A stretch of DNA of 32,000 nucleotides. Source: Candidatus Baldrarchaeota archaeon. Lineage in GTDB: Archaea > Asgardarchaeota > Baldrarchaeia > Baldrarchaeales > DXJG01. The position numbers and the translations under genes were made by a program. Below, piece after piece: positions 17,721-22,252 of the stretch (positions are counted from its first letter, which is position 1; every line of letters begins with the position of its first letter). The notes beneath the pieces were generated by a model that was not told the origin of the DNA, did no database searches, and saw nothing but the letters and a program-made list of their open reading frames with translations. The stretch covers positions 403,103-435,102 of the forward strand of contig DXJG01000002.1 in NCBI GenBank assembly GCA_019056805.1. The letters run 5' to 3'.

Positions 17721-18764
17721 ATGACGACTGCAAACAAAATAATTGAATACTACATTTATTTTGAAAACCCTTCATACGTGTTCAAGGTTAGTACAGCCCG
17801 CAAATACCTTAGATACAGGGATTTCATGACCTACGGTAGTCAACTTGTACCTGAGAGAATCGGCTCCGAAACATGGGCATTAGCTTGGGCTTACATTAGA
17901 CAAGTTGACGATATCCTTGACAATCCAAAGATGACAATTGAAAAATGTAAGGAATTTCTGGAAAACGAGATACAAGTCGTAATGGACTCTTTCAACAATA
18001 CTTATGAATTTAAACCTGGTTCTCCTCTAAGACATCTCTGGGCAAACCAATTCATAGACAACGTATACAAATACTATGATGACCGAATTCGAAAAGTTGT
18101 ATGGGATCTTTATGAAAGCGCAGTACTAGACATTAAAAGAAAAAGCAAAATTCTTAACACAAAGGAAATGAGAAAGCTTCTTTACAAAAAAGCTGTTTGT
18201 TTTTTTAAACTCTACTTCCTACTAGGAAAATTCGACTTCGGAAAATACCTTAACGACTTAGCCGAAACTCTAGGTTTAGCCTTAGGAATGCTTGACGATG
18301 CTCTCGATATAATTTATGATCACAAATCCAAATATATCAATATCACAAAAGAAGAATTAATGAAACTCGGCATTGACGCAGATCCCAGCGATAAAGATTT
18401 CATAAAACAACTTATAAGAAAGGGCTATTATGATTACAAGAGCTATCAAATCATGAGGCTCCTGTTAAAAGCCCGTAAACTTGCTAGAAAAATTAGAAGT
18501 ATTTACTTAAGAAGTTTAATTCTCAGACTTACAGAAGTTTTCGCATCTCCAATACTAGAAGGAAGATTTTTACCCGGGCAACAATATCTGTTTAAAGGTG
18601 GAAAATATCTAAAGGCAATTTTACCTGAAAATGAGATGGTAGCCTACAAAATCGGACACCAAATAATGAAAGTTGCTCTACTTTTTCCCCAAACATTTCC
18701 AGGACTTTTTAATGCTTTTTTCAAAACTAAAATACCGAAAGCTAAAAATCAATCCAAAACCTAA
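17721..18764 (+). CDS. Class I isoprenoid synthase-fold protein (squalene/phytoene synthase-like)
   Basis: AYIRQVDDILD resembles the YAFCRxxDDxxD motif; LGLALGMLDDALDIIYD.KSKYINITKEEL resembles LGxAxQLTNxLRDxxED...GRxYLPxEEL. Confidence 0.7.
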   Translation: MTTANKIIEYYIYFENPSYVFKVSTARKYLRYRDFMTYGSQLVPERIGSETWALAWAYIRQVDDILDNPKMTIEKCKEFLENEIQVVMDSFNNTYEFKPGSPLRHLWANQFIDNVYKYYDDRIRKVVWDLYESAVLDIKRKSKILNTKEMRKLLYKKAVCFFKLYFLLGKFDFGKYLNDLAETLGLALGMLDDALDIIYDHKSKYINITKEELMKLGIDADPSDKDFIKQLIRKGYYDYKSYQIMRLLLKARKLARKIRSIYLRSLILRLTEVFASPILEGRFLPGQQYLFKGGKYLKAILPENEMVAYKIGHQIMKVALLFPQTFPGLFNAFFKTKIPKAKNQSKT

Positions 18765-18842
18765 TAAATATCCGTGTTCTATGGAAAATCAAAAAATTGA
18801 ACATGCAATTAGTGCTATTTCCTTATATCGGGGGATTAAAAT

Positions 18843-20009
18843 ATGGGAAAAATAGCTGAACTGGTTGAAAAACATTCAAATTATCGTAAAGAAACCTTGA
18901 ACCTAATACCAAGTGAAAACATAATGACTCCTTCTTCTAGACATCTATTATGCCCCGATTTAGTTCACAGGTATGTAAATCCACACAACGTTTATGGTGG
19001 AACCAAATATAGTGATGCAATAGTTGAAGAAACCCGCAAAATGGCTCAAAAAATATTTAAATCCGAATTTGCTTTTATAGAACCCTTAAGCGGAAATATA
19101 GCTGTCCTAGCCGCCATATATGCCTTTACAAACATAGGCGACAAAGTTATGATAGTATCACCCGACGACGGCGGATACCCTATAAACCTGGAAAAACTAG
19201 GAAGAAAACCAGTATACTTTCCATTTGATAAAGAAAAAATGAATATTGCTGTTGAAAAAGCTGAAAAACTCATTTTAAAAGAAAAACCAAAACTTATAAT
19301 ATTTGGGCAAAGCTTATTTTTGTTCCCACATCCAGTTAAAGAATTATCAGAAACTGCTAAAGAAGTTGGAGCAACTACAGTTTACGATGGAAGCCATGTT
19401 CTAGGATTAATCGCTGGAGGAGTATTTCAAGACCCCTTAAGGGAAGGCGCGCAAATACTTCTAGGTAGCACGCATAAAACTTTCCCAGGGCCTCAAGGAG
19501 GCATCATTGTAGGCATCGGCGAGAAAGAAGAACAAAAACTCTGGGAAGCTCTAGGTTTTCCCCTTGTACTTGTCGATAATCCTCATTTACATAGAATAGC
19601 TGCCTTAGGTGCAGCACTTGAAGAATACGAGAAATACGGGCCCAACTATGCTAAACAAGTAGTTAAAAATGCCAAAACTCTCGCTGAGGAATTATATAAT
19701 GGCGGGTTAAATGTAGCATGTGCTGAACTAGGCTTTACCGAAAGCCACCAAGTCTACCTGCCAACAGACTCCCTTGAAGAAGGAAGAAAAATATATAATG
19801 TACTTGAAGAAGCTGGAATCATAGTTGACGCCCTTGTTAGACTTGGAACTCAAGAAGTTACAATGATGGGAATGAAAGAAGAGGAAATGAGAAAAATAGC
19901 ATCATTCATTCTTGACGCCCTTTCTAGAAACAAACCCTTAAAATCAATTAAAACCGAAGTAAAAAATTTCCTAAAAGAATTTACATCAAAATACAGCAAC
20001 TATACATAA
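18843..20009 (+). CDS. glyA: Serine hydroxymethyltransferase (archaeal type)
   Basis: LNLIPSEN, YGGTKY, PLSGNIA, YDGSHVLGLIAGG, GSTHKTFPGPQGG (PLP Lys), ESHQV, RLGTQEVT. Confidence 0.93.
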   Translation: MGKIAELVEKHSNYRKETLNLIPSENIMTPSSRHLLCPDLVHRYVNPHNVYGGTKYSDAIVEETRKMAQKIFKSEFAFIEPLSGNIAVLAAIYAFTNIGDKVMIVSPDDGGYPINLEKLGRKPVYFPFDKEKMNIAVEKAEKLILKEKPKLIIFGQSLFLFPHPVKELSETAKEVGATTVYDGSHVLGLIAGGVFQDPLREGAQILLGSTHKTFPGPQGGIIVGIGEKEEQKLWEALGFPLVLVDNPHLHRIAALGAALEEYEKYGPNYAKQVVKNAKTLAEELYNGGLNVACAELGFTESHQVYLPTDSLEEGRKIYNVLEEAGIIVDALVRLGTQEVTMMGMKEEEMRKIASFILDALSRNKPLKSIKTEVKNFLKEFTSKYSNYT

Positions 20010-20156
20010 ATTTCCAGCAACAATTTCAAAGCAACTTCTGCTACCTGTCTCTATAAATGATTTCTTACTATTTTTGTAACAAGATAACCCTTCCAATAAT
20101 CATGTAAGAAAGAAAATAAAAGATAAATTGTACCTATATGTCATTGGTGATCACTT

Positions 20157-20222
20157 ATGCCTAGAAAATGTGGACGGAAATCAAAAGGAAAGAAAACTAC
20201 AAAGAGTAAAAAGTCGAAATAA
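20157..20222 (+). CDS. Unannotated 21-aa very basic peptide MPRKCGRKSKGKKTTKSKKSK
   Basis: ATG 20157 to TAA 20222; GGTGA SD at 20146-20150 with 6-nt spacing, as for serK; 11 of 21 residues are K/R; in-frame TGA immediately upstream. Confidence 0.55.
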   Translation: MPRKCGRKSKGKKTTKSKKSK

Positions 20223-20399
20223 AAACATATGTTAGCCTAAGTTTCCGTATTAAAAGCTCAAAAACTACCGTCAAGAGCCATAAGCCAGCTTGGACGTTTT
20301 ATTTAAATATACTAAAATCTCATTTTATTCGTGATCATATCAATTGACAACAAATGTTACCAATGCTATTTTCGCGTAACTTGATTTGGGTGATTGCCA

Positions 20400-21161
20400 A
20401 TGCCCGAGTTTGTTGAAATTCGAACCGAGCCCGAAGAGGAAAAACCCGAACTGGACGTTCCTTTTGAATTATTAAATTTAGATTTGTTAAAACCTCATGA
20501 GGAACTCGATCCAAATGAATTAGAGGCATTTATCGAAAGTGTAACCGGTTCTGGCATTTTTTGGAAAGCAGCCTTAATTTCTAAAGAGGGCTATGTCATT
20601 TTAGATGGTCATCATAGGTGGGCAGGCCTCAAAAAGTTAAATGCTAAGGTTATGCCCTGCATCCTTCTAGATTACATAAACAATCCTGAAGTAAAGGTAT
20701 ATACGTGGTATCCCTTTATTATTGGATCATTAAATCATCTGATAAAGGTTCTAGAAAACATCAAGGAAGTTGAGCTTATTTACGAGAACAACAAAAATGT
20801 TGTATTTGAGATGGTTAAAAATATGGAAGCTGCATTTGGACTAATTCACTCAAACAGCAACAAAGATTTCATCATTATTACAGGTAACGATGATCCTTAC
20901 GATCTCCAAAAAATTATTATTAAACATCTAATTAATGACCAAGAAATTCAGCTAGGTTATATTGATACAATTAAGGGTGCCGAAGATCTGATATCTCAAG
21001 GTAAGGCTGTAGCTTATTTTGTTAGGCGAGCTCCTACAAAACAGGAAATCGTAGAACGCGCATCTAGAGGCAAAGTCTATCCACCGAAAACAACTCGTCA
21101 TTCACTTCCTTTTGTTCCCAAAAAGATACACGTGCCTTTAGAAAAATTATTAAACCCCTAA
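20400..21161 (+). CDS. serK: ADP-dependent free serine kinase SerK (ParB/Srx fold)
   Basis: LKPHEEL..ELEAFIESVTGSGIFWK, LDGHHRWAGLKKL, VKVYTWYP, RRAPTKQE, PKTTRH.LPFVP..I.V.LE.L closely match Thermococcus SerK as recalled; ATG is 6 nt after GGTGA. Confidence 0.88.
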   Translation: MPEFVEIRTEPEEEKPELDVPFELLNLDLLKPHEELDPNELEAFIESVTGSGIFWKAALISKEGYVILDGHHRWAGLKKLNAKVMPCILLDYINNPEVKVYTWYPFIIGSLNHLIKVLENIKEVELIYENNKNVVFEMVKNMEAAFGLIHSNSNKDFIIITGNDDPYDLQKIIIKHLINDQEIQLGYIDTIKGAEDLISQGKAVAYFVRRAPTKQEIVERASRGKVYPPKTTRHSLPFVPKKIHVPLEKLLNP

Positions 21162-21274
21162 AGTTTTTTGCTACAATTTTTGTTCCATTTTGCTGTTCTT
21201 GACATCGCCATATTATACGTAAGATTTATAACTGTGTTATATATCATTGTTATATATTCAGGGAGGACGCCAAA

Positions 21275-22252
21275 GTGAAAGTAGCAGAAAGTGTTCTAGA
21301 CCTAGTTGGAGAAACTCCCCTCGTGAAAATCAGAAAACTAAACCCCAACAAAAATGTAACAATATACGCCAAACTTGAATGGTATAACCCGATGGGATCA
21401 GTAAAAGATCGTATAGCTCTAAAAATGATTGAAAATGCTGAAAAACGCAGAGAACTCACGAAAGACAAGATCATATTGGAACCAACTTCAGGTAACACCG
21501 GTATCGGCTTAGCAATGGTTGCTGCTGTAAAAGGATACAAATGTATATTCGTCATGCCCGCAAGTGTAAGCATCGAGAGAATGATACTTCTCAAAACTCT
21601 AGGAGCGGATATTATCTTAACACCTCCAGAGGAGGGTATGGATGGCGCGATAAAAAGAGCTCGTGAAATGGCTAAAGACCCTAAATACTTTATGCCCAAT
21701 CAATTTGATAACCTTGATAATGTACGAGCACACTACGAAACCACTGGTCCAGAGATATGGAAACAAACAAAAGGAAAAATTACTCACTTCATTGCCGGCA
21801 TGGGTACCAGTGGCACACTAATGGGTGCGGGTAAATACCTAAAAGAGAAAAATCCTAAAATTCAAATCATTGGTGTTGAACCAGAGCCTAATCACAAAAT
21901 TCAAGGTTTAAAAAACATGAGTGAAGCTATCGTACCTAAGATATATGATGAATCCCGACTTGACAGAAAAATAGTGGTTACTACCGAGCAAGCTTATAAA
22001 ACTGCCAGGGAACTGATGAGAAAAGAAGGATTATTTGTCGGCATGTCTGCAGGAGCAGCCATGTATGCAGCCATGCAAGTAGCAAAGGAAGTCGACACGG
22101 GTGTCTTTGTAGTAATATTTCCAGATCATGGATTCAAATACCTGAGTACTCCGCTTTGTATGAGCGATGAGATATTAAAAACACTCAGAGAGCTAAGTAA
22201 AGCCTTCAAAATCCCAGAAACGGGATTATTTAAACCTGTAGAAGTTGTTTAA
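21275..22252 (+). CDS. cysK: PLP-dependent cysteine synthase family (probably O-phosphoserine sulfhydrylase)
   Basis: KLEWYNPMGSVKDR, EPTSGNTGIG, NQFDN..N, GMGTSGT, GMSAGA, FPDHGFKYLS; GTG start, GGAGG SD. Confidence 0.9.
   Translation: MKVAESVLDLVGETPLVKIRKLNPNKNVTIYAKLEWYNPMGSVKDRIALKMIENAEKRRELTKDKIILEPTSGNTGIGLAMVAAVKGYKCIFVMPASVSIERMILLKTLGADIILTPPEEGMDGAIKRAREMAKDPKYFMPNQFDNLDNVRAHYETTGPEIWKQTKGKITHFIAGMGTSGTLMGAGKYLKEKNPKIQIIGVEPEPNHKIQGLKNMSEAIVPKIYDESRLDRKIVVTTEQAYKTARELMRKEGLFVGMSAGAAMYAAMQVAKEVDTGVFVVIFPDHGFKYLSTPLCMSDEILKTLRELSKAFKIPETGLFKPVEVV

Follow-up and report, generated by a model that had tools for sequence, protein, structure and literature searches.

Does the interval between glyA and serK in a Candidatus Baldrarchaeota genome encode a very small protein, and if so, what could such a protein do? 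In the 32,000-nt stretch of DNA analysed here (the window, whose numbering is used unless a contig or locus is named), a 21-codon ORF lies downstream of glyA and upstream of serK, with a cysteine synthase gene beyond serK (Table 1). The original prediction had placed an SD-led micropeptide at 20146-20222; the ORF and its end stood, while 20146 proved to be the first base of the GGTGA, the real ATG being at 20157. The predicted composition of 9 Lys, 2 Arg and no acidic residue matched the translation, in which the remainder is Met, Pro, Cys, Gly, Ser and Thr, and a pI of about 11.4 and a net charge of about +10 were calculated. The GGTGA spacing was likewise found equal to that of serK, which carries GGTGA at 20389-20393, 6 nt ahead of its ATG at 20400. 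Genome-wide, GGTGA occurrences peak at 4-6 nt before start codons (104 of 157), and the 16S 3′ end was not found in the assembly searched. GGTG is retained upstream of the micro-ORF in five of six alleles, that of genome G001 being the exception, so that of the conservation which the original prediction staked itself on, the ORF held in all six alleles and the SD in five. The AT-rich element further upstream is a candidate BRE/TATA promoter of the micro-gene; it would put the transcription start near the ATG, and initiation would be SD-led or near-leaderless.

Table 1. Features of the micro-gene region and related genes (window positions, or contig/locus:positions)
Feature	Position	Strand	Remark
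glyA (SHMT), upstream neighbour	18843-20009	+	frameshifted or deleted in most relatives
AT-rich element, candidate BRE/TATA promoter	20118-20134	+	about 30-38 nt upstream of the ORF; sole upstream block alignable between clades
Shine-Dalgarno-like GGTGA	20146-20150	+	6 nt before the micro-ORF ATG
21-codon ORF, polybasic micro-protein	20157-20222	+	intact in 6 alleles, pN far below pS
Conserved head, codons 1-10	20157-20186	+	R3, C5, G6, R7, S9, K10 invariant in 6 alleles
Lys-rich tail	20187-20219	+	composition kept, sequence looser; between-clade pN 0.19-0.30
TTTAAATA box, TG 23 nt downstream; probable serK promoter	20302-20309	+	in 5/6 alleles
serK (ADP-dependent free-serine kinase family), downstream neighbour	20400-21161	+	
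Cysteine synthase (PALP), cysK	21275-22252	+	broken or deleted in several relatives keeping the micro-gene
Histone, the one detected in the genome, untailed	C9:249660-249848		
Genome's own eL41	C9:394208-394276		
Short basic N-terminal-tailed histone and 19-aa Lys-rich micro-gene of genome G100	L217:243-467 and L217:1042-1101	+ and -	

A-rich DNA favours Lys codons, as the original prediction had itself cautioned, and the ORF was missed by every gene caller, its exact sequence being missing from a collection of 15 billion proteins; a chance ORF or a non-coding element could look the same. In the 190 kb of intergenic DNA of the genome, three ORFs that are led by GGTGA, reach at least 15 aa and have K+R of at least 50% were counted, namely the micro-ORF and two on contig C11, whereas none was obtained in any of 60 dinucleotide shuffles (100-nt blocks). 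Six intact alleles, all from one genus, were then compared (the window's own in G000, G001 (L002 = L085 = L118), L083, L076, L288 and L304/L305, the last two recovered through SerK homologues). Between the two deep clades, pS of the micro-ORF was 0.55-0.86, comparable to that of serK (0.71-0.89), while pN was 0.17-0.19, as against 0.07-0.09 for serK; Fisher tests of pS vs. pN on three non-independent allele pairs gave p = 2.6e-5, 2e-4 and 1.4e-3. The sole indel within the ORF is of 6 nt, whereas the flanks cannot be aligned without many out-of-frame gaps, the Cys codon differs synonymously among alleles, and the remaining five frames are stop-interrupted or start-less in alleles. The synonymous excess, the frame-preserving indel and the conserved residues indicated that the micro-gene is real and selected as a peptide; that it is a coding gene under purifying selection is held with high confidence, and a chance or non-coding origin is hardly credible. 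A non-coding RNA was rejected, as Rfam gave no match and RNA structure did not exceed that of shuffles. An origin as a glyA remnant or as the serK 5′ end was rejected too, the frames being separate and the ORF having its own stop.

The alleles consist of a conserved head and a drifting tail. The head motif R-[KR]-C-G-R-x-S-K is conserved, between-clade pN over codons 2-10 being 0.05-0.15, and the third codon position varies in seven of nine codons, compared with two of nine each for the first and second positions. In the tail, substitutions between alleles preserve the Lys richness, a 2-codon insertion is tolerated in G001, and K12, K13, T14, K18 and S20 are further invariant. Each allele encodes 2-4 Arg, 8-9 Lys and one Cys, carries a net charge of +9.5 to +11.5 without a hydrophobic core, and ends at a stop codon after 21-23 codons.

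The closest relative with the same ORF is Candidatus Baldrarchaeota archaeon Yap30.bin4.67, and Baldrarchaeia is also the name given to members of the close SerK clusters. When 400 Asgard genomes, all GTDB genomes, JGI metagenomes and IMG/VR were scanned by pattern, no orthologue outside the genus was returned; what matched came either from the same genus or, by chance, from shadow frames in GC-rich bacteria. Nor was the micro-gene found in a sister-family genome that is 96% complete. Longer or fused forms were searched by DNA patterns alone; profile searches with the short peptides gave no match even in a genome known to hold one and were thus uninformative. As to serK itself, it was not found in G002 (82% complete), and G003 (84% complete) carries the SerK of a lineage that deleted the micro-gene, with the region upstream unassembled.

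Within the genus, several natural experiments separate the micro-gene from its neighbours. It is intact in L076 and L304/L305, although glyA is frameshifted and cysK broken or deleted there, and in L288 it is still intact with the entire upstream region rearranged. In one lineage (L297, L299-L303, L306), a deletion took the micro-gene and most of glyA but spared serK and its upstream box; in L287, a 1.39-kb insertion with repeated CCT on both sides parts ATG-CCT from the remaining ORF. Being intact beside broken glyA and cysK, and deleted or split elsewhere, the micro-gene is independent of glyA and cysK and dispensable, and its loss in two lineages means that its benefit is modest. The L287 insertion (L287:1376-2761) carries an AbrB/MazE-like ORF (weak Pfam match) and a decayed TnpB-like fragment, judged by eye and without Pfam match, and its sequence was not found in G000. 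The glyA-serK-cysK cluster as a whole (window 17721-22252; L076, L118, L287, L297-L306) is in decay throughout the genus: most relatives have a broken glyA and many a broken cysK, but all have an intact serK, suggesting that SerK has a use beyond cysteine synthesis.

The position of the ORF directly upstream of serK-cysK in all intact alleles raises the reading of a cis-acting leader peptide, in which translation of Cys, Gly and Ser codons and then of a poly-basic run would regulate serK-cysK. This was worth testing because the invariant non-basic head residues Cys, Gly and Ser, which are the amino acids interconverted by the cluster, precede Gly-Ser-Cys genes. However, the would-be regulatory codons are single (one Cys codon) rather than in runs, and no RNA fold, including the alternative hairpins of an amino-acid-sensing leader, rose above shuffles (z -0.17 to 1.12). 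No such ORF occurs near cysK homologues of the other Asgards searched or before 54%-identical serK homologues, and among the alleles compared, retention of the micro-gene was not tied to the downstream biosynthetic genes. Further, serK is preceded by its own TATA-like box, a variant of which lies at the same distance from serK in the sixth allele. From these sequence features, serK probably has its own promoter, in which case the micro-gene would be a separate unit. With an independent gene, a separate serK box, no RNA structure and no Rfam match, the micro-gene is probably not a cysteine leader, and a leader acting in cis is very unlikely. The micro-protein is also unlikely to be a substrate of SerK, since the T. 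kodakarensis enzyme phosphorylates free serine and not serine within a peptide (PMC5120207).

The reading we prefer (probability about 0.45) is that the micro-gene stands alone, is non-essential and encodes a disordered polycation with a specific head, which would bind nucleic acid on the nucleoid or general RNA. Binding to nucleic acid in general, as originally predicted, is likely and the most likely role, a judgement drawn from charge only. The Met1 would be lost, given Pro or Ser at position 2, and the remaining roughly 20-residue disordered chain may bind nucleic acid mainly through charge, in the manner of the C-terminal tail of histone H1 or of a large polyamine, and thereby neutralise and compact the DNA or RNA of a thermophile; a specific contact could come from the invariant R-x-C-G-R-x-S-K head, and the single Cys could cross-link copies through a disulfide or a shared metal. 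The charge, the lack of a hydrophobic core and the maintained Lys-rich tail are consistent with such a polycation. On the other side, the sequence-conserved head would better fit a defined site, e.g., on rRNA, than pure charge neutralisation, no acidic partner gene was detected nearby or in a genome scan, and the gene, all of whose alleles belong to a single genus, has been lost from two lineages. What we infer is that the gene has its own promoter and is expressed, that the peptide acts on the nucleoid or general RNA rather than at a single ribosomal site, and how the Cys contributes.

The preferred reading of a nucleic-acid-binding polycation was also compared with what other Asgard archaea encode. 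Pattern searches found stand-alone Lys-rich ORFs of 17-35 aa in at least eight other Asgard families, and in size and composition the micro-protein equals 25 of these from eight families, some with H1-like PAKK repeats. Like the members of this class, it is short, has about 50% K+R, is SD-led and intergenic, and is absent from protein databases (none of ten Asgard micro-peptides looked up was in the 15-billion-protein collection). In contrast, the class starts M-[APG]-K-K-K, whereas the micro-protein starts with its Arg/Cys head, and the class adjoins an acidic micro-gene and/or a ChrB/PaaX-like gene rather than glyA and serK. The likeness to this pan-Asgard class is without demonstrable homology: the sequence-order similarity of the alleles to it gave p 0.08-0.89 against their own shuffles, while the class members, being pattern-picked, passed the same comparison among themselves in a partly circular way. 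As start, neighbours and demonstrable sequence order are not shared, the micro-protein is treated as a separate genus-level family of this kind.

Next to the Asgard Lys-rich micro-ORFs there is often a D/E/W-rich micro-ORF together with a basic gene of 280 aa, a homologue of one on contig C11, an arrangement that makes protein partners plausible for such peptides. The micro-protein could then be a polycation that binds or inhibits the acidic surface of a protein, such as an enzyme, a regulator or an acidic micro-protein, with the conserved head as a recognition or modification motif. Since no acidic micro-ORF adjoins it or was detected in G000, and the ChrB-like gene of G000 already has two basic micro-genes of its own on C11, this is unlikely. 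Those two, at C11:60794-60853 (+) (L153:2646-2705) and C11:59318-59365 (-) (L153:1170-1217), are SD-led, K/R-rich and of 19 and 15 aa, and flank a 275-aa basic gene (ChrB/PaaX-like) without Pfam match. Elsewhere (L267-L279, L282, L220, L155, L158-L163), a Lys-rich micro-gene is paired with a D/E/W-rich micro-gene of 25-43 aa, and in most cases the C11 basic gene has a homologue next to the pair. The most H1-CTD-like ORFs are those of family f9 (L223, L226-L228), which are stand-alone, 32-35 aa long and built of PAKK-type repeats, and no acidic partner was seen within the flanks read. In G100, a tailed histone gene and a Lys-rich micro-gene are convergent, with about 0.6 kb between them (Table 1).

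The likeness to a free histone tail, which the original prediction had put forward, did not hold up. The H3 motif was matched at 5/7 positions in the window allele (shuffle p 0.046) and fell to 3/7 in two orthologues (p 0.93), and homology to the H3 tail was rejected on this ground; the sole histone detected is untailed and distant, and no allele fuses the micro-protein to a histone fold, each ending at its stop. Nor was a protamine-like nature borne out: protamines are Arg-dominated and often contain several Cys, whereas the micro-protein is Lys-rich with one Cys and few Arg. The C-terminal domain of histone H1 and the H1-like proteins of bacteria and protists are Lys-rich with S/T/G/P spacers and no fold. 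The micro-protein resembles these in composition and in its predicted lack of a fold, and by analogy charge-driven DNA binding would be expected of both, although it is far shorter and without PAKK-type repeats. According to one report (PMC6136690), no H1 homologues were found in archaea; a 2026 preprint (10.64898/2026.10.28.762692) lists a structural H1-like cluster in Asgards, which is a match of folded structure and cannot be the micro-protein.

[quoted passage not shown] The micro-protein is similar to them in size, Lys content and pI, and by this analogy its Lys methylation is plausible. Those tails, in contrast, extend a histone fold, while the micro-ORF ends after 21 codons with no adjoining histone, and its H3-like motif is not conserved. 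It is distinctly unlikely that the micro-protein represents, in Baldrarchaeia, a free H1-tail-like chromatin polycation of Asgards, a "tail in trans" offering untailed histones a modifiable Lys-rich element whose copies the Cys would cross-link. If it were true, separate basic micro-peptides would be a precursor pool for linker-histone and tail functions in the lineage closest to eukaryotes.

Tiny ribosomal proteins (eL41/eS32, Thx, bS22) are strongly basic, 20-30 aa long, missed by annotation and encoded by stand-alone genes, and they can be dispensable. The micro-protein has all of this in common with them, and it may be an accessory, lineage-restricted peptide of the ribosome whose head, resembling the first zinc knuckle of eL37, would sit in an rRNA pocket. 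PDB matches were solely to eL37 chains (best E 0.22), and within the proteome of this genome eL37 again scored best (shuffle p of 0.22, 0.04 and 0.01 with three alleles); the sequence conservation of the head agrees with this. The eL37 knuckle C-R-R-C-G-R-R-S shows 7/7 identities in two alleles and 5/7 in the window's allele. However, the eL37 match is non-significant in PDB and weak for the window's allele, and only one of the four zinc cysteines is present: eL37 has a four-Cys zinc finger and an N-terminal rRNA-binding arm, whereas the micro-protein lacks the rest of eL37, an intact copy of which is encoded on C10. The micro-gene also lies outside any ribosomal-protein cluster, and its two losses, and the fact that it was not found in the 96%-complete sister-family genome, count against a ribosomal role. 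The eL37 likeness is no more than suggestive, as a basic C-G-R motif is as likely to have arisen by convergence as by descent or mimicry, and a ribosomal site for the micro-protein is doubtful. Unannotated and lineage-restricted archaeal ribosomal proteins do exist, as aS35 is missing from the UniProt proteome and aL48/aL49 occur in Thermoproteales (bioRxiv 10.1101/2024.11.12.623245).

Searches of Pfam and NCBIfam gave no match, and those of PDB no match to tiny ribosomal proteins. The original prediction that the peptide is not eL41 proved correct: no Ribosomal_L41 profile match was obtained, and the true eL41 is encoded separately (Table 1), as are eS30 and eL37 elsewhere in the genome. In eL41, the sequence forms an Arg-rich helix with Trp/Leu, whereas the micro-protein is Lys/Ser/Thr-rich with one invariant Cys.

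These results describe an undescribed, genus-restricted and dispensable family of polybasic micro-proteins in Baldrarchaeia, for which a nucleic-acid-binding function is predicted. In a literature search whose coverage left out most subscription papers, no description of the micro-gene or of similar Asgard micro-genes was found. Asgard genomes hold a hidden layer of genes of <35 codons that gene callers do not record, and tryptic proteomics would destroy such Lys-rich micro-peptides. Six alleles and the natural knock-outs pin down the conserved head and weigh against the leader-peptide reading. Should such polycations turn out to package DNA or to be part of the ribosome, they would bear on the origins, near the eukaryote root, of chromatin tails, linker histones and extra ribosomal proteins.

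Three further observations were made along the way. G000 carries at C9:242082-242132 (-) a Pro/Gly-rich intergenic ORF of 16 aa, which is SD-led and preceded by a TATA-like box, and a selenocysteine tRNA was called by ARAGORN at C9:448264-448366. In G001 (contig C110), an SD-led 20-aa ORF at L170:1501-1575 (+) lies between two minus-strand genes and combines a basic N-terminus with a Trp-Gly-Ser-Gly-Trp tail.
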